NCBI GenBank assembly: GCA_034716155.1
Contig: JAYEFR010000108.1
Coordinates: 1 to 61,820, forward strand
DNA length: 61,820 bases
Source of the DNA: Thermodesulfobacteriota bacterium
Lineage (GTDB): Bacteria; Desulfobacterota; Desulfomonilia; UBA1062
Direction of reading: 5' to 3'
Below, one piece after another: positions 1,579 through 25,051 of the stretch. The notes beneath the pieces were generated by a model. The model had not been told where the DNA came from and ran no database searches. It saw only the letters and a program-made list of their open reading frames with translations. Position numbers and translations under genes: made by a program. The number at the start of each line of letters is the position of its first letter. The stretch's first letter is position 1.

Positions 1579-2151
1579 ATGTTCATGGAAAAACTATTCA
1601 TGACACCAGATGGCATATATACCAGTCCTTATGCTTTCAATTTGAGAGATATTGCGCCACCTCACGAACTCTCTGGTGGTTCACAAACAAATACAGAGGA
1701 GTCTCTCCAACACAACAAGAGAGTGGCAATACAGATAAAGGAACAAGGGATGGTACTGGTATTGGTACTGGTCGTACTCTTGGCAGCGATTGTCATTGGA
1801 ATAACTGTAATGCGTTCTTCTACGATAGAGGCAAGGATTGCTGGAAATGAGAGGATTTATAAGCAAGACTTCTATGTTGCAGAGAGTGGCATTGACTATG
1901 CGCTTGTAACCTCTGCGATTCCGATGAGTTCAATAGGGCTGACCATAAATGGTACGTATAATTATTCATCATTAGGCTTACCAGCTATTCTTTCCGGCAC
2001 AGGTATCAACCTTAGGTTGATAAAGATAACGAATCCGCCTGTTGGCTCAGGCTTTAGCGCAAATGATTTCAAGGCCCACTATTACCGGGTCGCTTCCAGT
2101 AAGACAAATCAGGCCATAGATGTTGGTGCATGGAAGGCCTTTCCAAAATAA
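1579..2151 (+). CDS. pilX: PilX-like minor pilin, copy 1 (long leader; start may be 1585)
   Basis: EQG|MVLVLVLVVLLAA class III signal lacking E5; EARIAGNER..F..AESG PilX N-terminal motif; directly upstream of pilY1. Confidence 0.85.
   Translation: MFMEKLFMTPDGIYTSPYAFNLRDIAPPHELSGGSQTNTEESLQHNKRVAIQIKEQGMVLVLVLVVLLAAIVIGITVMRSSTIEARIAGNERIYKQDFYVAESGIDYALVTSAIPMSSIGLTINGTYNYSSLGLPAILSGTGINLRLIKITNPPVGSGFSANDFKAHYYRVASSKTNQAIDVGAWKAFPK
1750..1850 (+). repeat. 101-bp direct repeat, copy A (pilX N-terminal helix)
   Basis: 98/101 identical to 20962-21062; perfect 68-bp run at 1774-1841. Confidence 0.95.
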
Positions 2152-2172
2152 CCTAAAAAAAGGAGATATAGT

Positions 2173-5100
2173 ATGCCTAAAAAGATACTGATTATATGTT
2201 TTATCTTTTCTCTCGTGTTTATCTCTAAGAACGCAGGGGCAGATGATACCGACATCTTTGGTGGTGGTGTCATCAATATCCCCCCCAATGTCCTTATTAT
2301 ATTTGACAACTCAGGTAGTATGAACGAGGATGCAGAGCTTATTCCATCAGCCCACTATGATAAAGACACGAGCTATCCTGGTCCTTATAATAGGTCTCGT
2401 GTATATTATAAATATGCTAGGTGGATAAATTGGTATAATTTTCAATGGATAGGCGATGAAACGGTTGACCCTGGAGAGATTGCCTGTGATTCTGCACGAA
2501 ATTCCCTTAATGAGAACGGACATTGGCAAGGGCCTATACATACATGGGGCTCACATACATGCGGCGGGTATTCGTATATGTTAAGAACAGGTAATTATAG
2601 GAATTTTCTCGATTCTTTAGGTGTTACTGACGTAAAGAAGATCGATCTTGCAAAGGAGACAATAAAGGATATCATTCAAACAACCGACAATGTGCGCTTT
2701 GGTATCATGATTTTTAATAATGAAAAAGGTGGTCACATCCTGGCGCCCATAGCCACCAGGGAAACCCAGGCTGAGAAAGATGCTCTTAAGGTATTGATTG
2801 ATGGCATTGATGCAGACACATGGACCCCCCTTGCAGAGACTTTGGCAGAGGCAGGTCTTTACTTTGCACGCAAGCCCTCATGGGCAAATTCCGGGGGGAA
2901 TTATAATACTGACTTTGATTATGCCATACAATGGAGATGCCAGAAGAATTACGCCATAATCATGACAGATGGCGAATCAACAAAGGATAAAGGAGATGTA
3001 CTTACACGTAATGATTATATTAATGGAAAATCCATCGGTGATTTTGACGGAGATGGGAATGATCCAGGTTCTTACCCTTCCGATGGTAGTGATTATCTAG
3101 ATGATGTTGCCAAGTTCTTATATGATGAAGATCTGCTTACAGGTATCTTGTATGATTCTGGTGGGATCTCCTTTGATGATCCTAATGATTCTCGTTTCGC
3201 AAAACAGAATATCATAACCTATACCATTGGCTTTGACATAAACAATACCCTGTTATCAGAGACCGCGGATTCATCCCACGGGCAGGGCGACTATTATACT
3301 ACCGAGGCCACAGGTGGTGGAGGAGTAAGCCTATCAGATATCTTTCAGAACATAATTGGTAGTATCTTAGAAACCAGCTCTGAATTTGTTGCACCTGTTG
3401 TTCCTGTAAGCAGGATGAACAAGACATATGCAGGAAATTGTGTATATCTCGGGATTTTCTCCCTGGACAGCTCAGGATTATGGAAAGGAAACCTCAAGAA
3501 GTTTGGGTTGAGCGAATGTGGTTATCTCCTGGACAGGGATGGAAATCTTGCCACAGATTTATCAGGTGCTATCAAAGAAGGTGCCCATTCTTGTTGGTTC
3601 CTTGTTGATGGTCTTGAGGGAATGGAGGTAGAAAAGGGTGGGGCAGGTCAGGTGCTGCTGACTCAGGCTTCGAGGTATTTCTACACCTATAATACAGGGA
3701 CCACCCTTACTGCACTTGATAAAAACCACATAACCCCATCAGATTTGGGTTTGACAACTACATCCGAGAGAGATGATCTGATCGACTTTGTCAGGGCAGA
3801 GGGGGATTATGATCCCGATGGTGGTGGAGATAATGCCAGGCCATGGGTATTAGGTGATATCCTTCATTCCAGACCTGCTGTACTTTATGATGATAGTAAT
3901 TATAAGAATGTGATCTTTGTGGGTGCCAATGATGGCTTCCTTCATTGTTTTGTTGATGATGACAAAGGCACTTATGATGATCTTACTGATGATACAGTAG
4001 AGGAGATATGGACATTTATACCGTGGAATTTATTGCCTGAACTTCAGTTTTTACGCGATGGTTCAGCCCATGATTGTTTTGTTGATGGTACCCCGATTGT
4101 TTATACCACAGGTAATAATACATATATAGTATTTGGTCTTAGAAGGGGTGGAGATAAATACTATACTTTAGATGTGAGTAATTATGCATCACCTTCATTT
4201 GTATGGGAGGTAGCACCCAATATCCTCGGCACTGAGTCCCTGGGCCAGTCCTGGTCTACGCCGCATTTTTGTACGATCAAAGAATCAGGTGGCAATACAA
4301 GAGATGTGCTCCTTCTAACAGGTGGTTATGACTCAAATCAAGATAATGTAGATCCAGGTGCAAGTGACAGCGAGGCAAGGGCTGTATATGCAGTAGATGC
4401 TGCAACTGGTGCATTGTGTACTAATCTTAATTTCAACCATGCTACCTATGCCAATATGCAATACTGTATCGTTGATCTTACATCCTTTGACAACGATGGA
4501 GATGGTTATGAGGGCACTATCTACGCTGGATCCTTAGGAGGGAATTTGTTTGTGTTCAATGACAGGGATGAGGATGGGACCTGGGATGCCAGAAGGCTTT
4601 TCAGTGCTGGAAACAGTGGTACAGATAAGCTAAAGAAATTCTTCAACTCCCCTGGTGTAGTGCAGGAGACATTTGGTGATTATGTATACATTGGCACTGG
4701 AGACAGGGAAGACCCTCAAAGAACGACCGTGGTCAACCAATTTTATGCTATTAAGAATACATGGCCTGCAACCTGGGATGATAGCTCCGACACGCTAACC
4801 CCATCTACCCTGGTAAATGTTACTTCAGATATACTCCAGGATCCTACCAAGACCGAGGCGGAGAAGGATGCGGTAAGGGCGGCGCTTGCGGCAGGTAGTG
4901 GATGGTATATTAATCTGGAAAATTCAGGTGAAAAGGTGGTATCCTCTCCTCTGGTCTTTAACAAGGTAGTATACTTCACCACGTTTACCCCTAGTGCAGA
5001 TACGGGATCAAGTGATGATCTCTGTTCCCTTGGATATGGAAGTGGTATAGCCAGACTCTATGCTATAGATTACAAGACAGGAAATGCTGTTTTTGACTTT

Positions 5101-5286
5101 ACGGAAGATGACCAACTGACAAAGACTGATCGGTCTATAAATATCGGTTCCGGCATACCTTCTCAGCCGGTAATCGTTGTTACAAAAACAGGGGTTCATG
5201 TAATTGTAGGTACTGAAGGCGGGGTGTTCTCACAAACCATAACACCTGACCAAAATATCTTTCGTTATTACTGGAAACAGAACTAA
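2173..5286 (+). CDS. pilY1: PilY1/PilC tip adhesin with vWA domain, copy 1
   Basis: Signal peptide, MIDAS DNSGS, TPLAE, TDGE; beta-propeller motifs LGDILHS, GANDGFLH, LGQSWS, GTGD; Ca-loop DNDGDG; terminal YYWKQ. Confidence 0.92.
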   Translation: MPKKILIICFIFSLVFISKNAGADDTDIFGGGVINIPPNVLIIFDNSGSMNEDAELIPSAHYDKDTSYPGPYNRSRVYYKYARWINWYNFQWIGDETVDPGEIACDSARNSLNENGHWQGPIHTWGSHTCGGYSYMLRTGNYRNFLDSLGVTDVKKIDLAKETIKDIIQTTDNVRFGIMIFNNEKGGHILAPIATRETQAEKDALKVLIDGIDADTWTPLAETLAEAGLYFARKPSWANSGGNYNTDFDYAIQWRCQKNYAIIMTDGESTKDKGDVLTRNDYINGKSIGDFDGDGNDPGSYPSDGSDYLDDVAKFLYDEDLLTGILYDSGGISFDDPNDSRFAKQNIITYTIGFDINNTLLSETADSSHGQGDYYTTEATGGGGVSLSDIFQNIIGSILETSSEFVAPVVPVSRMNKTYAGNCVYLGIFSLDSSGLWKGNLKKFGLSECGYLLDRDGNLATDLSGAIKEGAHSCWFLVDGLEGMEVEKGGAGQVLLTQASRYFYTYNTGTTLTALDKNHITPSDLGLTTTSERDDLIDFVRAEGDYDPDGGGDNARPWVLGDILHSRPAVLYDDSNYKNVIFVGANDGFLHCFVDDDKGTYDDLTDDTVEEIWTFIPWNLLPELQFLRDGSAHDCFVDGTPIVYTTGNNTYIVFGLRRGGDKYYTLDVSNYASPSFVWEVAPNILGTESLGQSWSTPHFCTIKESGGNTRDVLLLTGGYDSNQDNVDPGASDSEARAVYAVDAATGALCTNLNFNHATYANMQYCIVDLTSFDNDGDGYEGTIYAGSLGGNLFVFNDRDEDGTWDARRLFSAGNSGTDKLKKFFNSPGVVQETFGDYVYIGTGDREDPQRTTVVNQFYAIKNTWPATWDDSSDTLTPSTLVNVTSDILQDPTKTEAEKDAVRAALAAGSGWYINLENSGEKVVSSPLVFNKVVYFTTFTPSADTGSSDDLCSLGYGSGIARLYAIDYKTGNAVFDFTEDDQLTKTDRSINIGSGIPSQPVIVVTKTGVHVIVGTEGGVFSQTITPDQNIFRYYWKQN

Positions 5287-5302
5287 TAAAAGGGGGTAAA
5301 TA

Positions 5303-5749
5303 ATGTGGTATACATGGAGTATAAATAAACTTACGAAAATATCTTTGCCTCTCCTTTTTGCTTGCTTGTTCTTCGCAACCCTCTGCTATGCAGGTCCTCT
5401 GAGCGATGTCTTAAAGGATTGGGAACCAGTGGCTATTCAGGGTAAGATAATGGAGGTTGGCCCTGAAAAAGACTACATAGTTATCCAGGAGAAAAAGATA
5501 ATCCTTGTGCATACCATTAAAGCAAGGAAAGAATATAGAACGAGGATAATGGATCTTAAGGGCAATACTTTAACTCAAGATGCGCTATCAAAAGGAAAAC
5601 CGGTGTTTGTCAAAGGAGGGGAGATAGTAGACAAGGATACAAACGACATGACAATCCTGGCCAAAGATATATATCTCTTACCTAAATATATTAGAGAAGA
5701 CCAGATGAAGAATTATGGTATCTTTCACTCCCCATTTTCACCGTGGTAA
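5303..5749 (+). CDS. Small secreted beta-rich protein, PilY2-position, copy 1
   Basis: Signal peptide; paralog of 24587-25051 (PEKDYI, VFV.GG, IYLLP/IFLLP); follows pilY1. Confidence 0.7.
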   Translation: MWYTWSINKLTKISLPLLFACLFFATLCYAGPLSDVLKDWEPVAIQGKIMEVGPEKDYIVIQEKKIILVHTIKARKEYRTRIMDLKGNTLTQDALSKGKPVFVKGGEIVDKDTNDMTILAKDIYLLPKYIREDQMKNYGIFHSPFSPW

Positions 5750-5941
5750 GAGAGTGGTAGCCATAGCAATGATGCAGTAGAGCTCCCCTCTCAGGCAGAC
5801 TCAAGTGGCATTCTGGCAGTTTTCGTAAAAAATGAGAAACCCTTTCTCAACTCCTCCATTTTTTATTGTAATAAAAATGCCGATAGTATATATTATATAA
5901 CTTGCCACCGGCATTCTCTGAAAAATAAGAGAAGGGGCCCC

Positions 5942-7033
5942 ATGGTTAAATCAAAATATTTAACGAAAATAGATAAGCTCATCCAATTGAGTGCTGAGGA
6001 ACGAACCCAGTTAAGGGAAGTGACGGACAGGTTTGTCTTTCGTGCCAATGACTATTATCTCTCGCTCATTGATTGGGATGACCCATATGACCCGATACGC
6101 CGAATCGTAATCCCGGATCCAGGAGAGCTGGAAGAATGGGGGCGTCTTGATGCTTCACAGGAGAAAGATTATACTGTGATCCCGGGGTTTCAACACAAAT
6201 ATAATTCTACTGCCTTATTGCTGATAAGCAATGTGTGTGGTGGTATATGCCGGTATTGCTTCCGCAAACGTATCTTCATGTTTCTAAAGGAAGATCCAGA
6301 GATTTTACGCGATTTAAAGGCAGCTTTAAAATACATAAGACAGCATAAAGAGATAACCAATATCCTCTTAACCGGAGGAGATCCACTAATGCTGAGCACT
6401 TTAAAGCTTGAAAGTATTATCAGACAAATTATGGAGATTGAACATGTGCAAATAGTTCGTATCGGAACTAAAATAACCGCATTTAACCCATATCGCATCC
6501 TTGATGACCCGTCTCTTTTAGATATGATCGAAAGATTTACCCATAAGAAAAAGAAGATTTACGTAATGAATGACTTTAACCATCCAAGGGAGTTAACGGA
6601 TGTTGCTGTCAGTGCGGTCAATCTATTGCTTAAATCAGGGGCAATACTCACAAATCAGACTCCCCTTATTAGAGGAGTGAATGACAATTCGAAAACCCTG
6701 GCAGAATTACTGAGGGAATTATCCTTTATAGGGGTAGCCCCGTACTATGTCTTCCAGTGCCGTCCTGCCGTTGGCAATATGGCCTATGCTGTGCCCATAG
6801 AAGAGGGGTATGAGATATTTGAACAGGCAAAGGACATGGTCTCAGGGCTTGCAAAGCGTGCCCGTTTTGTAATGTCCCATTCTACTGGTAAGATAGAGAT
6901 CGTGGGAATGGCTCAAGGATATGTTTATTTAAAGTATCACAGGGCAGCTGATGATAAAGATAATGGCCGCTTCATGATATTCAGGGCCAATCCTGATGCA
7001 TACTGGCTAGACGACTATGACGAAATAACTTGA
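5942..7033 (+). CDS. KamA-family radical SAM protein (lysine 2,3-aminomutase-like)
   Basis: HKY, CGGICRYCFRKR, LLTGGDPL, FNHPRE, NQTPLIRGVND, PYYVFQC, GKIEI. Confidence 0.9.
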   Translation: MVKSKYLTKIDKLIQLSAEERTQLREVTDRFVFRANDYYLSLIDWDDPYDPIRRIVIPDPGELEEWGRLDASQEKDYTVIPGFQHKYNSTALLLISNVCGGICRYCFRKRIFMFLKEDPEILRDLKAALKYIRQHKEITNILLTGGDPLMLSTLKLESIIRQIMEIEHVQIVRIGTKITAFNPYRILDDPSLLDMIERFTHKKKKIYVMNDFNHPRELTDVAVSAVNLLLKSGAILTNQTPLIRGVNDNSKTLAELLRELSFIGVAPYYVFQCRPAVGNMAYAVPIEEGYEIFEQAKDMVSGLAKRARFVMSHSTGKIEIVGMAQGYVYLKYHRAADDKDNGRFMIFRANPDAYWLDDYDEIT

Positions 7034-7090
7034 GATTATCCCGTTAGTTTACCTTACATGGCCTATGGATCAGAGTAGCACAAGTAATTG

Positions 7091-7382
7091 TAACTGCTCA
7101 GGTTATTAGACTGAAGGTGGAAGACTAATAAGTATTTAGGCCAAAGACCAAAGATAGAGAAAGGCTAACAATTAATAATTGATGGCTTCGTAAAAAGTTC
7201 AACTTCTGCGTTGCGCTTAAATCTTTCGTCATTGCGGAGTACGGTAAGTACGCCTCATTCCTCAAGATTTGCGCGCCTTGAATTTGAAGCTTTTTACTTT
7301 GCCGTCTAATTCGGACTTTTTACGACTGCGTCAATAATTAGTCTTCGGCCTTCAGCCTTTAACCTAAATACCTGAGCAGTTA
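7091..7382. mobile_element. MITE-like element with 13-bp terminal inverted repeats and 7-mer subterminal repeats
   Basis: TAACTGCTCAGGT (7091-7103) / ACCTGAGCAGTTA (7370-7382); CTGAAGG/CCTTCAG units; related ends at 37270, 37421 and 38771. Confidence 0.75.
7181..7332. mobile_element. Nested MITE with 7-bp target-site duplication
   Basis: Ends GATGGCTTCGTAAAAAGT...ACTTTTTACGACTGCGTC; flanked by AATAATT at 7174-7180 and 7333-7339. Confidence 0.8.
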
Positions 7383-7441
7383 AAAATTTTTTATCTCTCC
7401 TGTGCTTGCAATGCATCATTATATAGACTATTTTTATGTGA

Positions 7442-8692
7442 ATGGCAGATAACAGACCGAGTATTGTGTTTGCAGATGAAAAGGGCAATATCTTTGACTT
7501 TGAGCCGCTAGCCATGGTGGGAAGAAGCGGGGATTATCTTATCCCCATAGAAGATAGTGACATAATACCTGCGCCAAAAGGGGGACAATTTTATGTCCTT
7601 CCTGACAGACACCCTATTGGTATGGACAGGCAAACCGGGCAGATAATAACACTTAAGAAAAATCCTTTTGACCCATCATCACCTGCATTTGCTGTAGCCA
7701 TATTTTTAGCAGCTGCTCACACCCAAACGTATCTTGCTGCATGGGAGGCATGTGATCATGCTACCAGCCTCCCACTCTTTGCATATACAGCGCTTGGATG
7801 GAAAGAAGGGTTTGTGACCACTGCTGTCCGAACAGATATATCTACCCGCCAGGACATTGACACATTCAATATGGATACGGTAAGGAAAGGTGTTGAACTA
7901 TGGAAATCAAGTTTGCCTGAAAACAGATTGGTTACTCACCTTGCTCATTGTGCATTAGTGTATGGATGCCCTGCTGCGCTCAATCTATTTCAGGGGAGGG
8001 AAGAAGGCCCCCTGCCGACATCGCCTTCCTGTAATGCAAGGTGTATAGGCTGTATATCTCATCAGCCCGTCGGCCATCCACCTGCTCCTCAGAAAAGGAT
8101 AAAGTTTATACCGAGCCCTAAAGAGATCGCCCAGGTTGCCCTCACACATATAATCCATGTGAAAGACCCTGTGGTAAGTTTTGGGCAGGGTTGCGAAGGG
8201 GAACCATTGCTTGCCGGCGATGTTATTGAAGAAGCCATTCATATGATCCGGGCCAAAACAGATAAAGGCACTATAAACCTGAATTCAAATGCAAGCCTGC
8301 CAGAAGTTGTAAGATCTCTTGCAGATGCAGGGCTTGATAGTCTGAGGGTAAGTATGAATTCTGCAAGGCCACCTACATATAAGGCATATTTCAGGCCGTC
8401 ATATGATTTTGATGCATTGCATAAAAGTATATACGAGATGAAGAAAAGGGATAAGTTTGTCTCTGTTAACCTATTTGTATTTCCAGGTGTCACTGATGCC
8501 CCAAAGGAGGCAGATACATTGAAGGCATTTATCAAGGATGCTGGTGTGGATATGGTTCAATGGCGTAATCTGAATATAGATCCGGATGTCTATCTTGACA
8601 CTCTAGGGCAGAAGTTTCCTTCAGGTATAGGTGTAAAAAGGCTTATCAGCGAGATCCCTGTAAGGTGCGGGTATTTTAATCCCCCATTATGA
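7442..8692 (+). CDS. Uncharacterised radical SAM protein
   Basis: CNARCIGC (CxxxCxxC), SFGQGCEGEP, RNLNIDP, LPLFAYTA. Confidence 0.85.
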   Translation: MADNRPSIVFADEKGNIFDFEPLAMVGRSGDYLIPIEDSDIIPAPKGGQFYVLPDRHPIGMDRQTGQIITLKKNPFDPSSPAFAVAIFLAAAHTQTYLAAWEACDHATSLPLFAYTALGWKEGFVTTAVRTDISTRQDIDTFNMDTVRKGVELWKSSLPENRLVTHLAHCALVYGCPAALNLFQGREEGPLPTSPSCNARCIGCISHQPVGHPPAPQKRIKFIPSPKEIAQVALTHIIHVKDPVVSFGQGCEGEPLLAGDVIEEAIHMIRAKTDKGTINLNSNASLPEVVRSLADAGLDSLRVSMNSARPPTYKAYFRPSYDFDALHKSIYEMKKRDKFVSVNLFVFPGVTDAPKEADTLKAFIKDAGVDMVQWRNLNIDPDVYLDTLGQKFPSGIGVKRLISEIPVRCGYFNPPL

Positions 8693-8809
8693 GATAGCTG
8701 AAGGCTAAAGGCTTACTAATTGCTGAATTTAGACAAATAAGCTCATTGACACTTGTGGAATTGAGTTATATCTATGGCCTTACAAACCAGATTTTTTATT
8801 GGAGGAATA

Positions 8810-9583
8810 ATGATGCTAAATGAGGTTACTATAACAAGAGCTATACTAGATACCTATCTAAGTAAGCTTAAGAGTGCCCTTGAACTTGATGTTGCTATAG
8901 TAGGTGCCGGGCCATCAGGCCTTGTAGCCGGCTATTATCTGGCAAAGGCAGGCAAGAAAGTCGGACTCTTTGAGAAAAAGCTCTCAGTCGGCGGTGGTAT
9001 GTGGTGCGGGGGCATGATGTTTAATGAACTCGTTGTACAGGATGCAGCAAGACCATTGGTAGAGGAATTCGGTGTAAGGCTAAAAAAATTTGAAGAAAGT
9101 TACTATACTATTGACTCAATTGAGACTGTATCTTCGCTTACATACCACGCAATCGAGGCTGGCTTGAAGATATTTAACCTGATAACAATAGAAGATATAG
9201 TGTTTAAGGACGGTCATGTATCCGGGCTTGTGATTAACTGGGCACCTGTAGAAATGACAGGGCTTTCTATAGATCCTTTGACCTTGCATTCACAATTTGT
9301 AATAGATGCGACAGGGCATCCTGCAAATGTAACAGAGGCGCTGGTAAAAAAGATGGGCGTAAAACTCAATACTGAAACCGGCAAGATAATAGGCGAGAAA
9401 TCTATGGATGCTAACCTTGGAGAAATAAATACCGTTGAGAATACCAAAGAGGCATTTCCGGGGTTATATGTATCTGGAATGGCGGCCAATGCAGTGTTTG
9501 GGGGATACAGGATGGGGCCGATATTTGGAGGGATGTTTTTGTCGGGCAAAAAGGCAGCAGAAGAGATAATAAAAAGACTTTAG
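8810..9583 (+). CDS. thi4: Thi4-type thiazole (ADP-thiazole) synthase
   Basis: GAGPSG, GGGMWx[19 protein letters not shown]; GGAGG RBS at 8801; upstream of thiE and thiC. Confidence 0.92.
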
Positions 9584-9585
9584 TA

Positions 9586-11894: not shown

Positions 11895-11919
11895 CATATA
11901 TTAGGTTTACGCCAAATAG

Positions 11920-14508: not shown

Positions 14509-14967
14509 ATGGCTGAAGACTTACCATTAATCATACGTAAGGCAAAAGAAGGGGATATCTTAGACATCTTGCAAATTGAGAACGTATCATTTGTTTCACC
14601 ATGGGATGAAGATACATTTATCTCTATCTTAAATGATACCACCTGTAAAAGTATTGTTGCTCTAATCCCCTCAGATGTATTGGCTGGATATTGTTTTGCA
14701 CTTGAGATGAGAAACATGATACACTTGTTGAATCTGGCTGTTAGACCTGAATACAGGAGGAAAGGTATAGGGAGATGTCTTGTAGAGGAAATTATATCTC
14801 TGGCTGCTTTATCCAACCGGAAGAGTATATTTTTAGAGGTGAGAGTGAACAATGACTCTGCTAAATGCCTGTATAGGGCTATGGGATTTCACCATGTATG
14901 CACATGGGAGCGTTACTATACAGATACGGGAGAAGATGCAGAGGTCATGGCCAAGAAGTTGAGTTAG
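14509..14967 (+). CDS. rimI: Ribosomal protein S18 alanine N-acetyltransferase
   Basis: SF..PW, NLAV.P.YRRKGIG, LEVR..N, RYY.DTGEDA. Confidence 0.88.
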   Translation: MAEDLPLIIRKAKEGDILDILQIENVSFVSPWDEDTFISILNDTTCKSIVALIPSDVLAGYCFALEMRNMIHLLNLAVRPEYRRKGIGRCLVEEIISLAALSNRKSIFLEVRVNNDSAKCLYRAMGFHHVCTWERYYTDTGEDAEVMAKKLS

Positions 14968-16928: not shown

Positions 16929-19304
16929 TTGAATTATGAGTTACCCTTGCCAAAGTGGCGTTGTATAACTATGAATTCAAAACCCAACCCTCAAAACCCA
17001 AAACCCAAAACTTACAATCTGCAGCTCATAGCTCACAACTCTCCACTCCTGGTAGTATTTGCAGGGCTATCTGCAGGGATCCTTATAGGACTAAAGGACA
17101 CAGGTGCTTTCTTGTTTGTCCTTGCATTCATCTTCATGCTCACTCCCAAGAAAAGGATAGTACATGCCATCCTTGGTATTATTCTAGGCCTGATTTCCAT
17201 CACCTGGATTCCGGGTGATGTAAATATACCAGATGGAGAATATACAATAGAGGGCGACGTTGTGGATTCAGGTTTTGCAAAGAGGATATACAGGATCCAT
17301 CTTGATCACATAAAGATTGACGGGCAAAGGCTACACGGCCGCTCTCAGATCAATATCTATAAGCACATAGAGACCTTACACAAGGGAACGCACATAAAAT
17401 CAAAGGCTGTTATAAGAATGCCCAGGCCTTATGGTAACATAGGAGAATTTGACTATACCAGGTATCTTAAGACCAAGGGTATTACATTAACCGGGTATAT
17501 AAAAGACTTTAACGATATAAAAAAGTATGGCCCTTGGGTTGTAAAAAAGGGCTTCAAAACCAATGCATCAAAGCAATTATCGAGCTTTGCCAAGCCGGAG
17601 GCGGAGATATTAAAGGCCATCCTGTTGGGAGACAAATCATGTTTGACCAACTCTATAAGGGACAGGTTCACCTCGCTTGGAATCTCCCATCTTATGGCTA
17701 TCTCCGGGCTACATATAGGGCTGGTGATCCTGTTCGGATACGTGATAGCATTTACTGTCTTGAGGTGTATTCCCCCTATTGCCAAAAGGTTTGACACGCC
17801 CATTGCAGCAAAGATCATAGGTCTTATAAGCGCTCTATTGTATGCATGCCTTGTAGGCCCATATATTCCCACTGTCAGAGCTACGATAATGGCAATGATG
17901 GTAGTCGGAGCGCTTTTCTTTGCACGAAAGAATGATGTTATAAACTCCCTTGCTCTATCAGGGATTGTCATACTTATTATATGGCCTGTCAGCATATATA
18001 GCCCAAGCTTTTTGTTATCCTTTGCCGCTGTACTCGGGATAATCGGAACACTGAACAAATTCAATTCAAGATCACGGATACTCCAACTTGCCATAATAAC
18101 TATAGCTGCCACTGTATTCACCCTCCCCATGATAGTGTATATATTCGGTTTTGTCTCACCCGCAGGGCTTATATCCAACCTGATTTTCGTCCCTGTATTT
18201 GGCCTATTTGTCATGCCCATTTCTCTGCTGGGTCTTTTGGCAACCCCTGTTTCATGGCCTATAGCTTCATACCTGTTTTCACTCTCTATGGATGGTATCA
18301 CCCTTATTCTCAAGACAGGCGACTTATTCGGTGTGCTCTTCCCTGTCAAGAGGCCATGGCTTGTCTGGGTCTATTCATGCTATCTTGGTCTTATCCTGGC
18401 ATTCTTTGGTAGAAAGACCAGGTTAAGAGCAATACTCATCACATTAAGCGCTATTTTCATAGTCACTTTACCGATTTTGCAGCAGCAGATAAGACTAGAC
18501 AAACCCCTTGCATTCGATTTTATAAGTGTTGGCCAGGGGGATTCAGCCCTTATCACCTCCGGGAGGCATGCAATATTGATTGATGCAGGCGGGTCACGAT
18601 CAGGATTTGACACCGGCAGATTTATTGTGGTCCCCCACCTGTTACAAAGGGGCATAACAAGACTGGATCTTGTGGTGATAACCCACTCTGATGTTGATCA
18701 TATAGGTGGGATGCCCTTTATATTAAGGCACTTTGATGTTGGTGAGGTATGGACAAACATGGGATCAGACTGGAATCCTGTATTTAAAGAGGTTACAAAG
18801 ATTGCAAGATCGAGATCCATACCCATAAAAGCAGTATGCCTTGGCGATATCCTAACCTTGGGGAATACAACAATCGAGGTGTTAAACCCGCTTAAACACA
18901 TAGCAAAAAGAGAGAAAGGCATGGACCTGAATTTGCATTCCATAGTGCTGATGGTGGTCGGCGACAATATGAAGGGCCTATTTATGGCAGATGCAGAGGG
19001 AATGGGAGAATTATCCTTGGCACATCTTGGCAGAGATATCTCGGCAGATGTGCTCAAGGTGGCTCACCACGGGGCAAAAAAGTCATGCCTTCCAGTATTT
19101 CTGGATATGGTAAACCCACGCATTGCAGTGATCTCATGCGGTTATAAGAACAGATATCATGTGCCCCGCCCCAAACCGCTAAAACGGTTGAGGGCTGAAG
19201 ATATAAAAGTGTTCAGGACGGATATGGATGGAGAGGTAATGGTAAGCAGCAAAAAGGGCGCCTATAATGTTAAGTTGGGGAGGGGTTATGCCGATACAAA
19301 ATAA
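16929..19304 (+). CDS. comEC: DNA uptake channel ComEC/Rec2 (start uncertain; 16971 possible)
   Basis: N.GEFDY, HLMAISGLH, RATIM, SFLLSF, VGQGD, THSDVDH, KVAHHG, RTDMDG. Confidence 0.93.
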   Translation: MNYELPLPKWRCITMNSKPNPQNPKPKTYNLQLIAHNSPLLVVFAGLSAGILIGLKDTGAFLFVLAFIFMLTPKKRIVHAILGIILGLISITWIPGDVNIPDGEYTIEGDVVDSGFAKRIYRIHLDHIKIDGQRLHGRSQINIYKHIETLHKGTHIKSKAVIRMPRPYGNIGEFDYTRYLKTKGITLTGYIKDFNDIKKYGPWVVKKGFKTNASKQLSSFAKPEAEILKAILLGDKSCLTNSIRDRFTSLGISHLMAISGLHIGLVILFGYVIAFTVLRCIPPIAKRFDTPIAAKIIGLISALLYACLVGPYIPTVRATIMAMMVVGALFFARKNDVINSLALSGIVILIIWPVSIYSPSFLLSFAAVLGIIGTLNKFNSRSRILQLAIITIAATVFTLPMIVYIFGFVSPAGLISNLIFVPVFGLFVMPISLLGLLATPVSWPIASYLFSLSMDGITLILKTGDLFGVLFPVKRPWLVWVYSCYLGLILAFFGRKTRLRAILITLSAIFIVTLPILQQQIRLDKPLAFDFISVGQGDSALITSGRHAILIDAGGSRSGFDTGRFIVVPHLLQRGITRLDLVVITHSDVDHIGGMPFILRHFDVGEVWTNMGSDWNPVFKEVTKIARSRSIPIKAVCLGDILTLGNTTIEVLNPLKHIAKREKGMDLNLHSIVLMVVGDNMKGLFMADAEGMGELSLAHLGRDISADVLKVAHHGAKKSCLPVFLDMVNPRIAVISCGYKNRYHVPRPKPLKRLRAEDIKVFRTDMDGEVMVSSKKGAYNVKLGRGYADTK
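16977..17046 (+). repeat. Degenerate 7-nt tandem repeat inside the comEC 5' end
   Basis: tcaaaac ccaaccc tcaaaac ccaaaac ccaaaac ttacaat ctgcagc tcatagc tcacaac tctccac; inverted partner ttttgaattatgagtt at about 16927-16942. Confidence 0.6.
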
Positions 19305-19803
19305 GATGAGACATAGGGGTTTAGTCTGCATTCAAAATACAAGAGGTTTTACGATAATGGAGCTAATGGTAGTTGTAATTATAATTGCTATTGGCGCAGC
19401 CATAGCCGCTCCGAGCATAGGCGGCTGGCTTGCCAAACAAAGGTTGAATAGTTCAGCAAGGACCCTTGCCTCCCATTTTCAACAGGCAAGGATGGCAGCG
19501 CTAAAGGGCAATGAGGATGTTAGAGTATGCTTTGATGATAATGCAGCACCGACACCGGATAGATATATTGTGGAAGCAGATCTAACGGATCCAATCGTGC
19601 CATGGACTACATTAGAAGATGATACCGATATAACTCCAAACTTTGCCGGAGTTGGGGCAATGGCAGCAAATTCCACCGGCTTCGATAGTCGTGGGCTTGC
19701 ATTACAGCAAGGCAGCATTGTAGTACAGAGTACTAAGGCCCCCTTGGCCGATAATACCAGGACCATAACGTTGTCTCTTGGTGGGAGTATAAGTATAAGA
19801 TAG
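19288..19803 (+). CDS. fimT: FimT/FimU (GspH-like) minor pilin
   Basis: RG|FTIMELMVV, ARMAAL, FDSRG. Confidence 0.85.
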   Translation: MPIQNKMRHRGLVCIQNTRGFTIMELMVVVIIIAIGAAIAAPSIGGWLAKQRLNSSARTLASHFQQARMAALKGNEDVRVCFDDNAAPTPDRYIVEADLTDPIVPWTTLEDDTDITPNFAGVGAMAANSTGFDSRGLALQQGSIVVQSTKAPLADNTRTITLSLGGSISIR

Positions 19804-19817
19804 GAGGTTATCAAATC

Positions 19818-20438
19818 TTGATAGTCGGAACCTTAAAGCACAATAGACAATCAAATCAGATAGTTGAGAAAGAATATCATATTCCAAAACTTGCCGTCTA
19901 TAACAATAAAGGCGTAACCCTGGTGGAATTAATGGTAGTCCTAGTCATATCTGCCATTTTGATGGCGGTTGTATATACTGCTTATCTAACCCAGCACAAA
20001 ATCGGGCATGTACAACATCAGGTTGTCACAATGCAGCAGGATCTAAGGGCATCAATCGATATAATGGAAAGGGATATGAGGATGGCGGGCTGCGACCCGA
20101 CAGGCAATACCACAGCAGGTATCCTTACATGGACAGCAAACTCTTTAGGCGTAACTATGGATATCGACGAAAACGGTACTATTGATGCAGGTGAACAGGT
20201 AGCCTATTCTATGGTGCAGTCAACACTTTTCAGAAATGGCCAATCCCTGGCTGTAAATGTCACAAGCCTGGGATTCACCTATTTTGACAGCGATAATAAT
20301 CCTGCCGGTAGTGTAAATGATATAAGGTCTGTAGTAATAAATATTGTTGTCCGCAGCGAACAGATAGACCCGGATACAGGACAGACCATTACCCGCACAC
20401 TGACGAGGAGGGCAAGATGCCGAAATCTAGGGTTGTAA
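19818..20438 (+). CDS. pilW: PilW-like minor pilin (TTG start, long leader)
   Basis: KG|VTLVELMVVL, MQQDLR, RDMRMAGCDP, RNLGL; AGGAGGT RBS. Confidence 0.85.
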   Translation: MIVGTLKHNRQSNQIVEKEYHIPKLAVYNNKGVTLVELMVVLVISAILMAVVYTAYLTQHKIGHVQHQVVTMQQDLRASIDIMERDMRMAGCDPTGNTTAGILTWTANSLGVTMDIDENGTIDAGEQVAYSMVQSTLFRNGQSLAVNVTSLGFTYFDSDNNPAGSVNDIRSVVINIVVRSEQIDPDTGQTITRTLTRRARCRNLGL

Positions 20439-20474
20439 GGCAAAACAGGGCAAAAAGAAAAGGAGAGGAAAGGA

Positions 20475-20566
20475 GGTGTCAGGTCTTGACATTTGACATT
20501 TTAGAGCACAACACACAATCAGGTCAAGTAGTTAAAAAGAAATGTCAAATGTCAAGACCTGACACC
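20475..20566. repeat. Perfect 27-bp inverted repeat (REPIN-like) over the pilV start and leader
   Basis: GGTGTCAGGTCTTGACATTTGACATTT (20475-20501) / AAATGTCAAATGTCAAGACCTGACACC (20540-20566); 38-nt spacer. Confidence 0.95.
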
Positions 20567-20941
20567 AGAGAAGGCTTCACCCTTATTGAGGTGGTAATAG
20601 CCATATTGATATTTGCAGTAGGGATCATAGGGGTAGCAAAGATGCAGGGTGAGGCAGTAAAGGGTGGCAGTTTTGGTATGCAGATAACTGATGCCATGAA
20701 TATTACACAGAATCAGGTGGAGTTACTTATGGGACTGAGTTATGCGCATACATCCCTTACCAATGGGGCTCATAATTCTCCGGGAATTACCTCTGATGCA
20801 GGGAGGAACTATGCCATTGTATGGAATGTCAGTGATGATACACCTGTTACAGGGGTAAAACAGGTACGAGTTAGTTCATCATGGACCGAGAAGCCCACCC
20901 CTCACCAAGTCACTGTTACGTTTATAAGGGGGCAGCCATAA
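20486..20941 (+). CDS. pilV: PilV-like minor pilin (TTG 20486 or ATG 20549)
   Basis: EG|FTLIEVVIAILIFAVG; C-terminal WNV..DTP..G.K.V.V..SW. Confidence 0.85.
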   Translation: MTFDILEHNTQSGQVVKKKCQMSRPDTREGFTLIEVVIAILIFAVGIIGVAKMQGEAVKGGSFGMQITDAMNITQNQVELLMGLSYAHTSLTNGAHNSPGITSDAGRNYAIVWNVSDDTPVTGVKQVRVSSSWTEKPTPHQVTVTFIRGQP

Positions 20942-21363
20942 TGAAAAATAACCAGGAAGGAATGGTACTGGTATTGGTATTGGTAGTACTCTTGGCAGCG
21001 ATTGTCATTGGAATAACTGTAATGCGTTCTTCTACGATAGAGGCAAGGATTGCCGGAAATGAAAGGGCCTATAAACGGGATTTTTACACAGCAGAGAGTG
21101 CCGGTAACTATGCTGTTGCCAACTTTGATGCATTTGCCAGTTCAACAATAATAAATATGAACACAACTTACCCTCTTTCGCCACCAGTTGGCAGCATGAT
21201 AAGCAGTGCGACCATCAGTGTGCAACTGACCCGCACCGGGACTTCACCTGTGGGCGAAGGTACAAGTGCCACGCAAGTAACTACCAATTATTACAAGATC
21301 ATATCTGATATAAACAACCAGAATATAGAGATAGGTGTATGGAAGAATTTTCCGACACAATAA
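20941..21363 (+). CDS. pilX: PilX-like minor pilin, copy 2
   Basis: MKNNQEG|MVLVLV..., no E5; lies between pilV and pilY1. Confidence 0.87.
   Translation: MKNNQEGMVLVLVLVVLLAAIVIGITVMRSSTIEARIAGNERAYKRDFYTAESAGNYAVANFDAFASSTIINMNTTYPLSPPVGSMISSATISVQLTRTGTSPVGEGTSATQVTTNYYKIISDINNQNIEIGVWKNFPTQ
20962..21062 (+). repeat. 101-bp direct repeat, copy B
   Basis: 98/101 identical to 1750-1850. Confidence 0.95.
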
Positions 21364-21389
21364 GGATTAAACACAAGGAGAAATCTATT

Positions 21390-24300
21390 ATGTATAAAAA
21401 AATTATATTTCTCATAGGCCTTTGTTTATTGTTCGCATATAAGCCAAGCCTGGCCGATGATACAGAGATCTTTTCTGGAGGGGTGATAAATGTTACACCC
21501 AATGTGCTTATCATATTCGACACATCAGGATCTATGGCAGACAGTGTCCCATGCAGTGTATATGACCCTAGTTATGATTATGCTGAAGACTTTGGCGGTG
21601 GTGGATGGGGCAGCTCTACTGCTTCTTATGAGAGATATAAGGTCTATTATAAATCAGGTAGTGGCGGATGGGGTAGTGCTTCCTGGGAAGAATTTACCAA
21701 CAGTACCTCGGACATTGGCTGTGCAGATGCAAAAGATACACTGGATACCATTGGTCACTGGCAGGGGTACATAGGGAATAGTTCTCCATATAACTGTGGG
21801 ACATCCAATTCCGAGACCCTGGCAACAGGGAATTTCCTGAATTTTTTGGATTCTCCAATTATAGAGACTGATTCAAAAATCAATGTTGCCAGAAAAGCAA
21901 TAAAAGAGCTGTTAGATAGTATTGAAGACAACGCAGTCAGATTTGGCCTGATGAGATTTAATGATAGTAACCGAGGGGGCAGTATTGTCGCTGAAATGGG
22001 TTCTAGTGATGCCACCATAAAGACTGTGCTTGATATCTTTACTGCACATGGTGCGACCCCACTTGCCGAGAGCCTTGCAGAGGCAGGCCTGTATTTTGCC
22101 GGCAAGTCATCTTGGGCGAACCCAGGCACAACATATACATCTCCAATACAATGGAGATGTCAGAAGAATTATATAATATTGATGACCGATGGTAACTCAT
22201 GGAGTGATGAAGGTGACGGCAATGGTGATAATATATTCACCCGTGCCGACTACATTAATGGAAACTCTATCGGTGATTATGACAATGATGGGGTTGATCC
22301 AGGGACAGACGCTAATGGAGGCACTCATTGGCTCGATGACGTGGCAAAGTTCCTACATGACGAAGACCTCAGGATAGATCCTGCAACAGATAGTGCAGGT
22401 GAATCCTTTGATACTGATACCTATGGCACCTCTTGGCAACAGAACATAGTCACCTATACGATTGGTTTTGCAACTAAGACTGATGATTTACTCTTGAAAA
22501 GTACTGCGGATGATTTTCACGGTCACGGCGCGTATTACTCCTCTGAAAATAGTAGCCAACTGCAAGGGGCATTTAGTCATATTATAGGGGAAATCCTAGA
22601 GACAAATGCAAGCTTCATAGCGCCGGTGGTACCTGTGAGCAAGATGAACAAGGCCTATGCAGGAAACAGCGTTTACTTGGCTCTGTTCAGGCCTGTAGAT
22701 GCATCTGGATTCTGGGAAGGGAACCTTAAAAAATTCGGACTCAATTGCGATGGAGACCTCCTACAGAAGGACGGCAGCCCTGCTGCAGACGCAACTGGCC
22801 AGATCCTGAGTAATGCTTCCTCCTGTTGGAGTAGCGCGGATGGAAGTGATGTAAAAAAAGGTGGCGCTGGCGAGACAGCGCTTTCTCAGACTGATAGAAC
22901 ATTCTATACATATCAGGGCACTGCAAATAAGAGCCTGACCCATAGTGATAATGCCTTTTCAGTGGATAATACAGCGATCACCGCAACAACAATGGGAGTG
23001 GCTACTGATACTGAAAAGGATGATCTGATCAATTATCTAACGGCAAAAGGTGTGTATGCTCAAGGCGGGACTAGTGAGAGGGAATGGGTTCTAGGTGATA
23101 TCCTTCATTCAAAACCTGCAGTTATGTATGATGGGAATAACACTGTAATCTTTGGGGGTGCAAATGACGGGTTTCTGCATACCCTTGTAGATGATGATAA
23201 AGGGACCGGTACCTTAAGCGATGATTCAGTAAGCGAGAAATGGTGCTTTGTACCATGGGATCTCTTGCCAAACCTGCACCTGTTGAAAGACAGTTCAACT
23301 CACAGCTATTTTGTAGATGGATCTCCTGTCGTGTACAGAGAAAGCAATACCCAATATGTGTGCTTTGGCCTAAGACGTGGTGGCAATAAGTACTATGCAT
23401 TAAAAGTAGGTGAATATAACGCTAATGGAGATTATATCACAGATGGCTATCTCGCCCCTGAATGGGTATGGGAAATCAGTTCAAGTATACTGGGCTCTGA
23501 GACCCTTGCACAGTCATGGTCCACGCCACGTGTATGTACAATAGCAACTGGTGGTGGATCCACTACCAAGGTTATACTACTTGCAGGGGGCTATGATGTA
23601 GCAAATGAGGATCTGGATACACCTGCCTTGGGTGATTCCAAGGGCAGAGCAGTGTATGCAGTGGATGCATCAACAGGCATTTTAAGTGCAGTCATAAACT
23701 TCAATCATAGTAATTATTCTGACATGAGATATTCTATCGTTGACCTGGCTGAATTTGATTATGACAGTGATGGCCTGGATGATACTATCTATGCACCATC
23801 TCTAGGTGCTAACCTGTTTGTATTTAAAGACAGGGACAAAGATGGTTCGTGGGAGAAAAGGTGGCTGTTTAAGGCCAGAAATGGTTCAACTGCTACCACA
23901 TTGCTGAAATTTCTCTACGCACCGGATGTAGTCTTAGAGACCTTTGGTGATTATGTCTATATCGGCACAGGTGATAGGGCACATCCATCAGAGATAAATA
24001 CTACCAATCGCTTTTATGCAATAAAGAATAAATGGACAACCCCATGGACAGATGGTTCAGCCAATAACACCCTCACAGAAGGAGACCTGGTAGATGTGAC
24101 AAGTTACGGCTACAATCCAGCCACATATACAGCACTTGCGAGTGGAAATGGCTGGTTTATCAAATTCGATAAGCGCAGTGGTGAAAAGATGGTCTCCACC
24201 CCTATTGTATTTAACAAGATAGTGTTCTTTTCTACCTTTAGCCCAGATCCTGGTTCTGGAACAGATAAGTGCGCTACGCAGGGACTAGGAGGAGGAAGAC

Positions 24301-24563
24301 TCTATGCATTAAACTATATGACAGGACAGGCGGCTTTAAACTTTGATGAAACCAATGATGCTGGAGGTGAGGAGGTGCTTGCTAGGTCAGATAGAAGCAT
24401 ATACCTCGGAACCGGCATCCCATCCCAGCCAACCCTTATTGTAACCTTAAAGGGTACTAAACTGCTTATCGGGACTCAAGGCACTGGAGGTAGTGCTGGG
24501 ACAAGGACATTTAACGTGCCAGGTGGTCAGGGTGCAAAACCCTATTACTGGAAACAAAACTAA
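21390..24563 (+). CDS. pilY1: PilY1/PilC tip adhesin with vWA domain, copy 2
   Basis: Signal peptide, DTSGS MIDAS, TPLAE, LGDILHS, GANDGFLH, DYDSDG, YYWKQ; AAGGAG RBS. Confidence 0.92.
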   Translation: MYKKIIFLIGLCLLFAYKPSLADDTEIFSGGVINVTPNVLIIFDTSGSMADSVPCSVYDPSYDYAEDFGGGGWGSSTASYERYKVYYKSGSGGWGSASWEEFTNSTSDIGCADAKDTLDTIGHWQGYIGNSSPYNCGTSNSETLATGNFLNFLDSPIIETDSKINVARKAIKELLDSIEDNAVRFGLMRFNDSNRGGSIVAEMGSSDATIKTVLDIFTAHGATPLAESLAEAGLYFAGKSSWANPGTTYTSPIQWRCQKNYIILMTDGNSWSDEGDGNGDNIFTRADYINGNSIGDYDNDGVDPGTDANGGTHWLDDVAKFLHDEDLRIDPATDSAGESFDTDTYGTSWQQNIVTYTIGFATKTDDLLLKSTADDFHGHGAYYSSENSSQLQGAFSHIIGEILETNASFIAPVVPVSKMNKAYAGNSVYLALFRPVDASGFWEGNLKKFGLNCDGDLLQKDGSPAADATGQILSNASSCWSSADGSDVKKGGAGETALSQTDRTFYTYQGTANKSLTHSDNAFSVDNTAITATTMGVATDTEKDDLINYLTAKGVYAQGGTSEREWVLGDILHSKPAVMYDGNNTVIFGGANDGFLHTLVDDDKGTGTLSDDSVSEKWCFVPWDLLPNLHLLKDSSTHSYFVDGSPVVYRESNTQYVCFGLRRGGNKYYALKVGEYNANGDYITDGYLAPEWVWEISSSILGSETLAQSWSTPRVCTIATGGGSTTKVILLAGGYDVANEDLDTPALGDSKGRAVYAVDASTGILSAVINFNHSNYSDMRYSIVDLAEFDYDSDGLDDTIYAPSLGANLFVFKDRDKDGSWEKRWLFKARNGSTATTLLKFLYAPDVVLETFGDYVYIGTGDRAHPSEINTTNRFYAIKNKWTTPWTDGSANNTLTEGDLVDVTSYGYNPATYTALASGNGWFIKFDKRSGEKMVSTPIVFNKIVFFSTFSPDPGSGTDKCATQGLGGGRLYALNYMTGQAALNFDETNDAGGEEVLARSDRSIYLGTGIPSQPTLIVTLKGTKLLIGTQGTGGSAGTRTFNVPGGQGAKPYYWKQN

Positions 24564-24586
24564 TAAGCAATATCGAGGAGATAAAA

Positions 24587-25051
24587 ATGGCCCACATTTT
24601 TAATAAGATCATGACAACAGCAGTCTTTTCTATGTTTGTCCTGATGTTTTTTATAGGGATATGTAGTGCTGATAAGATATCTCATTACATAAAAAATTGG
24701 GAGTATACCCAGTTTCAAGCTAAAATCACATATGTAAGCCCTGAAAAAGACTATATCATAGCATCAGAAAGGATGATATTTCTGGTGGATCTGATTTATG
24801 AAGGAAAGCATTATCAGACCAATATCAAAGATATTAATGGTAATGACATAAGCTTTGAGGGGCTCAAGGTAGACAAATGGGTATTTGTAAGGGGAGGAAA
24901 ACTAAAGGACAAAACCATAGGTGCCAGGAGCATCTTTCTCTTACCCAGATCTCTTAAAAGAGATGATGCGGAACGATACCCCGTTCTACAATCTCTACAG
25001 AGTTGGGATCGTGAGATTGTTAATAAACATAGTAAACATAGAAGCAAATAA
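24587..25051 (+). CDS. Small secreted beta-rich protein, PilY2-position, copy 2
   Basis: Signal peptide; paralog of 5303-5749. Confidence 0.7.
   Translation: MAHIFNKIMTTAVFSMFVLMFFIGICSADKISHYIKNWEYTQFQAKITYVSPEKDYIIASERMIFLVDLIYEGKHYQTNIKDINGNDISFEGLKVDKWVFVRGGKLKDKTIGARSIFLLPRSLKRDDAERYPVLQSLQSWDREIVNKHSKHRSK

Follow-up and report, generated by a model that had tools for sequence, protein, structure and literature searches.

Two diverged PilX–PilY1 tip modules and the single PilV–PilW core that they may share in a Thermodesulfobacteriota genus

Among the closest described type IV pilus systems is the Pseudomonas aeruginosa operon fimU-pilV-pilW-pilX-pilY1-pilY2-pilE, which encodes GspH-, GspI-, GspJ- and GspK-like minor pilins, the adhesin PilY1 and, straight after it, a small protein with an oligonucleotide/oligosaccharide-binding (OB) fold. 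Other bacteria have several such adhesins, as described in the available parts of the reports cited here. Neisseria gonorrhoeae has PilC1 and PilC2 with one pilH-I-J-K set; the two proteins use a single PilK and are nearly redundant, and phase variation switches them (PMC13533445). For this system, the last 6-12 residues of PilC/PilY1 are proposed to add a strand to the PilK/PilX sheet, and the PilK-PilC heterodimer is proposed to be recognised by a preformed PilI-PilJ (PilV-PilW) dimer (PMC13533445). In clusters 1-3 of Myxococcus xanthus, each with four minor pilins of its own, several PilY1 types form alternative, differently expressed tips (PMC7541494, PMC9109919, PMC13190605), while Xylella fastidiosa has three PilY1 genes and two PilV/W/X sets, its paralogues having diverged in functions that include natural competence (PMC9956873). 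Pseudenhygromyxa and Enhygromyxa carry unlinked pilY1 genes, some with pilX alone adjoining, for which the authors suggested modular recruitment (PMC13190605). Here we describe a related arrangement in an uncultured, sediment-type Thermodesulfobacteriota bacterium (assembly GCA_034716155.1), in the 61,820-nucleotide (nt) contig JAYEFR010000108.1, which we analysed whole and call the window: two diverged pilX–pilY1 modules lie near a single fimT-pilW-pilV core, and we infer that this one core serves both.

In the first 27 kb of the window, a three-gene module of pilX, pilY1 and a gene for a small secreted protein occurs twice in the same orientation, at 1579-5749 (module 1) and 20941-25051 (module 2), with all genes on the plus strand. 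Module 1 consists of pilX1 (1579..2151), pilY1_1 (2173..5286) and acc1 (5303..5749), the last encoding a secreted OB-fold protein of 148 amino acids (aa). On its 5' side lie 540 non-coding bases and then a divergent short-chain dehydrogenase gene, and the open reading frames (ORFs) of the window include neither a minor pilin gene upstream of module 1 nor a regulator gene adjoining it. Module 2 consists of pilX2 (20941..21363), pilY1_2 (21390..24563; ORF from 21339, likely start 21390) and acc2 (24587..25051), which encodes a 154-aa secreted protein, and it alone is preceded by fimT (19267..19803, likely start 19306), pilW (19818..20438, mature start 19914) and pilV (likely start 20549, 20549..20941, mature start 20576), the pilX2 start overlapping the pilV stop (TAATG). 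Directly 5' of fimT is comEC (16929..19304; Pfam Competence, Lactamase_B and DUF4131), whose end overlaps the fimT frame or, if fimT begins at 19306, stops one base before it. Because the accessory gene encodes a PilY2-like OB-fold protein, each module matches the Pseudomonas pilX-pilY1-pilY2 order. The locus differs from the P. aeruginosa operon in its fimT-pilW-pilV order, the lack of pilE, the upstream comEC, the presence of a second, coreless module and an accessory protein without a sequence match to PilY2.

Applying Pfam curated cut-offs throughout, we found PilX_N (PF14341, 25.5 bits) exceeded by PilX1 (52.4 bits) and PilX2 (43.2 bits), the sole two matches in the genome, and both mature proteins begin MVLVL…, with Leu and no Glu at position 5; the absence of this Glu is stated to be invariable for PilK homologues (PMC13533445), the GspK class. 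Both pilY1 genes lie directly 3' of pilX and encode hydrophobic N-termini. PilY1_1, which comprises a signal peptide, an N-terminal part with a DxSxS motif that resembles a von Willebrand A (vWA) domain, the PilY1 beta-propeller (PF05567, 36.4 bits against a cut-off of 28.1) and a C-terminal …RYYWKQN strand, found nothing in a search of Protein Data Bank (PDB) sequences at E up to 0.01. PilY1_2 gave no Pfam match for the PF05567 propeller, and aligns end to end with PilY1_1. FimT scores above the cut-offs for GspH (PF12019, 36.3 bits) and N_methyl (28.3 bits), and PilW (36.6 bits) and PilV (29.1 bits) for N_methyl. The presumptive PilV and PilW classes rest on size, gene order and weak sub-threshold matches, namely TIGR02523 at 39.3 bits against a cut-off of 52.2 for PilV, and a PRK10557 match below its cut-off for PilW, homologues of which keep the same position in all family loci.

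PilY1_1 and PilY1_2 are identical at 528/1096 positions (48%), the accessory proteins at 52/136 (38%) and PilX1 and PilX2 at 72/136 (53%), or about 50% over the heads alone, while the first 35 mature PilX residues, MVLVLVLVVLLAAIVIGITVMRSSTIEARIAGNER, are the same in both. A first-pass annotation, made from the letters of the window, had described a module present twice with fimT, pilW and pilV beside the second copy only, identical N-terminal helices and diverged heads, adhesins and accessory proteins, and in all of this it was right. Its vWA label for the adhesins stands in part: the DxSxS motif is present in both, and the N-terminal part of PilY1_2 barely exceeds the VWA cut-off (PF00092, 24.1 against 23.8 bits), but PilY1_1 falls below (VWA_2, 17.6 against 27 bits). 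An N-terminal vWA domain is a trait of some PilY1 proteins and does not define them all.

A search for PilY1 was positive in 24 of 41 related genomes, all in one family. In the quick tree that we built from these proteins, with support from the Shimodaira–Hasegawa-like approximate likelihood ratio test (SH-aLRT), module 2 of this genome (G000) falls with sequences of the other two species of its genus (G001 and G002) and with G011b, G022b, G006 and G013 in a type-2 clade (support 100), and module 1 with G001, G002, G009, G007 and nine others in a type-1 group (support 85). PilX heads sort cleanly by the same types (support 99), and acc2 aligns with its family. Since the PilY1 tree splits into family-wide type-1 and type-2 groups, the duplication of the module is old, and a recent duplication was rejected for the same reason; the two modules are, on the evidence of these trees, old paralogue types spread over the family. 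Both PilY1 proteins share their C-terminal end (YYWKQN, within …PYYWKQN in PilY1_2), and a related [YF][YF]W motif is found across the family, whereas the C-terminal end differs between PilY1 paralogues that have separate cores (G011, G014 and G022).

The run pyrK-pyrD-comEC-fimT-pilW-pilV is kept in 17 family loci, and this same comEC-linked locus carries a type-1 tip in 10 genomes and a type-2 tip in G000, G001, G006 and G013. The position of comEC to the left of the core in the 17 loci suggests co-transcription and a role of the pilus in DNA uptake. A module without its own pilW and pilV occurs in 3/3 genomes of the window's genus; the other genera contribute 22 PilY1 loci, from 16 genomes, in which pilW and pilV adjoin, a count that takes in the rotated order pilY1-acc-pilW-pilV-pilX of G011b and the tandem second module of G022, and among the remaining loci one has fimT and pilV only and six are cut by contig ends or otherwise indeterminate. 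By this comparison the coreless module appears to be confined, within the family, to the genus alone. In both G000 and G002 its neighbours are the dehydrogenase gene and kamA, and in G001 it is on a 5-kb contig that breaks off 350 bases 5' of pilX1. Further strains with this arrangement were looked for in metagenome contigs, in which an exact 29-nt word from the stem of pilX had 0 matches; a query with the PilX1 protein found just two distant loci. The tandem arrangement just mentioned, on G022 contig C33 (L019, minus strand, 2921-14525), stands behind comEC and reads fimT-pilW-pilV-pilX-pilY1-acc-pilX'-pilY1'-acc'-pilW'-pilV', with a pilY1' product of 1317 aa, so that a second tip module comes straight after the first and is followed by another core pair (pilW'-pilV').

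We found no second core that would serve module 1. The assembly comprises 2.9 Mb in 279 contigs and is 96% complete, with 2.8% estimated contamination. Searches of all of it with tblastn placed pilX, pilY1 and the accessory gene at these two loci only, and FimT, PilW and PilV elsewhere gave only matches to the N-terminal motif; a second fimT-pilW-pilV run, whose presence would by the first-pass annotation have refuted its proposal, was not found in any of the three genus assemblies. The 13 N_methyl matches in the genome belong to this cluster, to a gspF-N type II secretion operon, to single pilins and to two further sites. At C208:39198-40255 (L032:399-1456), a FimT-like (GspH-class) and a PilV-like prepilin gene are paired at the end of a contig, with copies of a repeat on either side, and at C79:17216-20006 (L033:717-3507, minus strand) a PilW-like prepilin gene adjoins a gene whose 707-aa product begins with a PilX-like hydrophobic stretch, matches vWA weakly and has a C-terminal half like a propeller, as if a cap pilin had been fused to an adhesin. 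The C208 FimT-like gene is single-copy in 25/25 family genomes and the C79 gene in 24/25, and G009, which has one PilY1 only, carries both. Because they are single-copy whatever the number of PilY1 genes, G009 included, these genes do not track the extra module, and from their distribution they are a separate, family-wide system. The number of prepilin matches in G009 equals that in G001 and exceeds those in G000 and G002.

Module 1 has been maintained. Its frames are intact in three species, and the ratios of nonsynonymous to synonymous substitution rates (dN/dS) against G001 are 0.23 for pilY1_1, 0.30 for acc1 and 0.31 for the pilX1 head, so that by this measure the orphan module is under purifying selection. 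Upstream of pilX1, pattern matching located a sigma-54-type -24/-12 promoter-like element, TGGCAC-N5-GTGC, on the plus strand at 1540..1555, where TGGCACCAAATGTGCT is the sole 0-mismatch match to TGGCACNNNNNKTGCW in the window. The sigma-54 consensus is TGGCAC-N5-TTGCW, with GG at -24, GC at -12 and a fixed spacing. At the same position upstream of pilX1, G001 has TGGCACTAAATTTGCG and G002 has TGGCACCAAATATGCT, and all three species retain the element, the strong ribosome site AGGAGAC ahead of the start at 1579 and the ATG after it. When 26 loci were scanned with a looser motif, the 24 from other genera had no correctly oriented copy upstream of their minor-pilin clusters, the other two being the genus's own pilX1 loci. 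Module 1 thus carries its own putative sigma-54-type promoter.

The identical N-terminal residues of PilX1 and PilX2 have a different history from the rest of these proteins. We define the stem as the Gly codon plus 36 codons (111 nt; 1747..1857 in pilX1 and 20959-21069 in pilX2). In G000, pilX1 and pilX2 agree at 103/111 nt of the stem versus 148/288 nt of the rest of the gene (Fisher p 1.6e-16), and within G001 the two stems agree at 110/111 nt. The pilX1 stems of G000 and G001, by comparison, match at 83/111 nt, although the heads of these orthologues are 92-94% identical; the synonymous substitution rate (dS) between them is 1.24 in the stem versus 0.17 in the head. The stem of pilX1 in G000 likewise agrees with that of pilX2 in G002 at 93/111 nt and with that of pilX1 in G002 at only 74/111, and a stem-only tree places it with the pilX2 stems of G000 and G002 (support 94), while both G001 stems fall with type-1 stems. 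In G002 itself the two stems are distinct (73/111 nt, or 71/108; 20/36 aa). On the evidence of these alignments, the pattern is concerted evolution by gene conversion, which ran independently and in opposite directions in two species, from pilX2 to pilX1 in G000 and to a type-1-like stem in both genes in G001, and left the third unconverted. Purifying selection alone was rejected as the cause of the identical stems, since the identity within a genome extends to synonymous sites, and since the species differ in their stems. Five paralogue pairs from three genomes with separate cores have stems identical at just 62-70/108 nt; only the converted pairs are known to be closely spaced, at 19 kb and in direct orientation. 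The term 'gene conversion' was not found among the matches listed in the open-access literature on minor pilins and PilY1, which does not prove its absence from print.

Two consequences follow for the function of the stem. Because the stems were converted in opposite directions in G000 and G001, either stem would serve either head, and because G002 is unconverted and has the same orphan arrangement, stem identity is not required for function. The first-pass annotation had proposed a plug-in system in which a constant PilX stem docks on shared PilV and PilW. The constant stem does not survive as a docking requirement, the segment being a gene-conversion tract; a search for further orphan cassettes with the same stem, which that annotation had put forward, yields the orphan in all three genomes of the genus, with a stem that differs between G000 and G001. 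The plug-in idea fares better in its other part, one core for two modules.

The start of pilX1 carries further signs of exchange. Its frame from 1579 encodes a 57-residue leader, with an in-frame GTG at 1723 (ATG in G002) that would give a leader of nine residues; the mature protein starts at 1750, after the Gly codon at 1747-1749. From the same conserved ribosome site and ATG, the leader has 57 codons in G000 and G002 and 15 in G001, a difference of 42 in-frame codons. The upstream region and leader are nearly identical DNA in G000 and G002, and the mature PilX1 proteins are only about 60-70% identical, which points to a further recombination breakpoint at the start of mature PilX1.

Core and tip of the comEC-linked operon also appear to differ in ancestry. 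We used a concatenate of PilW and PilV because single-gene trees did not resolve, and in the resulting tree the core of the genus groups with that of G009 (SH-aLRT 90), whose tip is of type 1. Forcing the core next to that of G011b, the nearest type-2 tip outside the genus, was rejected by the approximately unbiased (AU) test (p 0.004). Since the core groups with the type-1-linked core of a sister genus and the adjoining tip is of type 2, the operon is a chimera, and on this reading evolution has already combined the core with both tip types. We also asked whether module 1 had come by horizontal transfer from a lineage like that of G009, since PilY1_1 shares 72% identity with its G009 counterpart and ComEC just 46%. 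This was rejected: the ComEC+PyrD tree, (G007,(G009,(G000,G001))) with supports of 95 and 97, makes G009 the sister of the genus and matches the type-1 PilY1 subtree.

These trees fit a history in which the original tip of the lineage would have been of type 1. A type-2 module, together with the 498-aa membrane protein that accompanies it, would have replaced that tip behind pilV at the comEC locus, the type-1 module now lying 19 kb upstream of the comEC-linked locus, and later gene conversion between the pilX 5' ends would have homogenised the stems in two of the three species. A comparable exchange is seen between G006 and G016, two members of one genus. Behind comEC (L030 5450-11166 versus L027) their flanks are 80-88% identical, and from about 225 nt into fimT through the end of the accessory gene no DNA similarity remains, G006 carrying a type-2 set and G016 a type-1 set. 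As judged from this alignment, the whole operon has been replaced, and the breakpoint is again in the segment coding for a pilin helix.

The accessory protein resembles PilY2 in its fold. A model of the acc1 product from a 21-sequence alignment has an OB fold behind a signal peptide, with a predicted local distance difference test score (pLDDT) of 85.6, and it aligns with P. aeruginosa PilY2 (PA4555; 3tdq) at a VIA-align Z of 7.4, with a root-mean-square deviation of 2.9 Å over 72 of 77 residues and 21% identity; 3tdq stands at Foldseek rank 6 for this model, tied with many unrelated OB folds. The 21-member profile gave no PilY2 match at E up to 10 against all PDB sequences, and the protein had no Pfam or NCBIfam family match. 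Because sequence homology to PilY2 was not detected, we call it PilY2-like by fold and gene position and not a member of that family. Almost all family loci have a copy 3' of pilY1, a …PW ending is conserved in type-1 members, and a homologue search with acc1 returned just four proteins, the window's own included.

The split found here, PilX-PilY1 in the modules and PilV-PilW in the core, fits the published two-heterodimer licensing model. We predicted one complex, that of the PilV head, the PilW head and the last 32 residues of PilY1_1 with the PilX1 head as the scored partner. The score was 0.89, the best of three controls reaching 0.04; this mark is attained by 58/80 solved complexes and 2/110 mismatched pairs. 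Runs agree in at least 79% of contacts, with a partner pLDDT of at least 89. In the predicted contacts, which follow the N. gonorrhoeae licensing scheme, residues 1027-1037 of PilY1_1 pair with residues 122-130 of PilX1, whose helix rests on PilV. That each variable PilX head carries a cognate adhesin of its own, as the first-pass annotation also proposed, is not supported as it stands: the donor strand of PilY1 (…YYWKQN) is alike in both modules, as is the acceptor strand in both PilX heads.

Taken with the absence of a second core, the selection on module 1, its promoter-like element and the chimeric operon, the complex prediction makes one FimT/PilW/PilV core with a PilV-PilW pair shared by the two PilX-PilY1 modules the best reading, to which we give a probability of roughly 0.6. 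Each PilX would bind its PilY1 through the last beta-strand of the adhesin, and either pair would then be taken up by the single PilV-PilW pair, giving a pilus with that adhesin at its tip. Module 2 would be transcribed within the comEC-linked operon and module 1 separately, from its own sigma-54-type promoter; given this separate promoter, we propose that the cell can choose or mix tips. A more far-reaching scheme is tentative, and we think it rather doubtful as a whole: the segment coding for the PilX N-terminal helix would be a recombination handle and the tip a swappable unit, a second, sigma-54-controlled tip would be kept off-site with its handle periodically re-homogenised, and two PilX-PilY1-PilY2-like heterocomplexes would be licensed by one PilV-PilW pair.

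Several observations weigh against the shared core or limit the evidence for it. The assembly is incomplete and fragmented, so that a second core may sit in unassembled DNA, and the C208 pair at its repeat-flanked contig end, or the C79 PilW-like protein, could serve module 1. Conversion may be a neutral outcome of two direct repeats 19 kb apart, this proximity being an alternative cause because only the converted pairs are known to lie close together, and the distinct stems of G002 indicate that an identical stem is not needed. Beyond the converted tract, PilX1 and PilX2 are no more conserved at the predicted interface (11/29 residues) than elsewhere (25/68; p 1.0), which argues against a selected common docking surface. 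The complex prediction cannot separate cognate from non-cognate relatives; since GspI-J-K complexes have been solved and near relatives of true partners reach the mark too, its score may reflect mere likeness to a known complex and not specificity. On the side of ancestry, the grouping with the G009 core has 90% SH-aLRT on a quick tree, the group in the AU test was named after the tree had been seen, and the single-gene trees of PilW, PilV and FimT are unresolved.

The foremost alternative is that module 1 uses other minor pilins, either the C208 FimT-like/PilV-like pair with the C79 PilW-like protein or a set lost in assembly gaps. Extra prepilin genes do exist in the genome, the sequence beyond the C208 contig end was not assembled, and the genome, in 279 contigs, is 96% complete. 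But the C208 and C79 genes are present once per genome across the family irrespective of PilY1 number, the C79 set is self-sufficient, having its own protein that joins PilX_N, vWA and propeller parts, none of the three genus assemblies holds a second three-gene run, and the copying of pilX2 sequence into the pilX1 stem links the two modules, so that we consider this explanation unlikely. Slightly less probable still is that module 1 is kept for a role other than priming, as a secreted or periplasmic adhesin or sensor, or mainly as a recombination reservoir for the expressed locus. PilY1 signalling outside the pilus has been reported for P. aeruginosa, in the available part of that work (PMC13001225), pilX 5' ends do recombine, and whole modules have been swapped at the comEC locus within the family. 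A non-priming role sits poorly with the purifying selection seen in each of the three genes, including the part for the cap pilin head and the gene for the PilY2-like protein, with the conserved ribosome site and promoter-like element, and with an intact C-terminal docking strand predicted to extend the PilX1 sheet; a reservoir sits poorly with conversion tracts that span only the stem and not the variable parts that a donor would supply.

An artefact of metagenome assembly or binning, in which a single locus appears twice because alleles from two strains were joined, or a repeat was collapsed, is very improbable. The assembly is fragmented and carries some estimated contamination, but a single 61.8-kb contig carries both modules, 19 kb apart among different housekeeping genes, module 1 of G002 has the same dehydrogenase and kamA neighbours, and the stems, which differ at 8/111 positions, are not collapsed.

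Returning to the shared core, the arrangement is a well-documented variant and not a new kind of system; related arrangements are already in print, and the Myxococcota, Neisseria and Xylella cases, as far as the available parts of those reports go (PMC13190605, PMC13533445, PMC9956873), make it less unprecedented than the first-pass annotation had implied. As in N. gonorrhoeae, two adhesins would use one core, the last beta-strand docking on a GspK-class pilin and the pair being taken up by a GspI/GspJ-class pair; unlike there, each adhesin comes with a separate, diverged PilX head and a PilY2-like protein, and identity between the adhesins is just 48%. M. xanthus also has a small accessory gene, the periplasmic tfcP of one cluster, and there every cluster brings its own minor pilins, while here one core would serve two tips. 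Like X. fastidiosa, this genome has more PilY1 genes than minor-pilin sets; PilX is not one-to-one with PilY1 in that species, and the available part of its report does not describe gene conversion of the cap pilin. Pseudenhygromyxa and Enhygromyxa, of a different lineage, share with this genus pilX-pilY1 pairs away from pilV, pilW and fimU, and in the available part of that report neither stem homogenisation nor a chimeric core/tip operon nor a dedicated promoter is described.

Two further features adjoin these genes. A 498-aa polytopic membrane protein is encoded 3' of module 2 (25137..26633, plus strand), as it is 3' of type-2 modules in G001, G002, G013 and G022b; it was not found after type-1 modules, and it had no Pfam or NCBIfam family match. 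Between pilW and pilV, at 20475..20566 on the plus strand, lies a 28-bp perfect hairpin resembling repetitive extragenic palindromic (REP) elements, with a predicted fold of -48 kcal/mol (z -9.8), with the likely start codon of pilV (20549) inside its 3' arm. Copies of the arms are dispersed over at least 11 other contigs, often at the ends of these, and form a repeat distinct from that flanking the C208 pair. The frame from 20417 remains open across the hairpin (window 20468-20575), the pilW leader (19818-19913) holds a stretch resembling its loop, and the window had no Rfam match at the gathering threshold.

The known parts list of the type IV pilus is unchanged by this finding. What it offers is a clear case of concerted evolution that is limited to one segment of a pilin, its helix, and a constant comEC-fimT-pilW-pilV locus that takes either tip type, with breakpoints in conserved segments coding for pilin helices. 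If one PilV-PilW pair accepts two PilX-PilY1 pairs whose heads are about 50% identical, the genus would be a natural experiment on the licensing model, and on which surfaces must match and which may vary. Should the recombination-handle scheme hold, these bacteria would possess a natural two-tip switch, in which, for instance, the comEC-linked tip would serve DNA uptake and the other, induced separately, would serve adhesion, and would provide a ready-made test of the 2026 beta-strand licensing model. The family picture shows how pilus adhesins exchange in uncultured Thermodesulfobacteriota-like bacteria.

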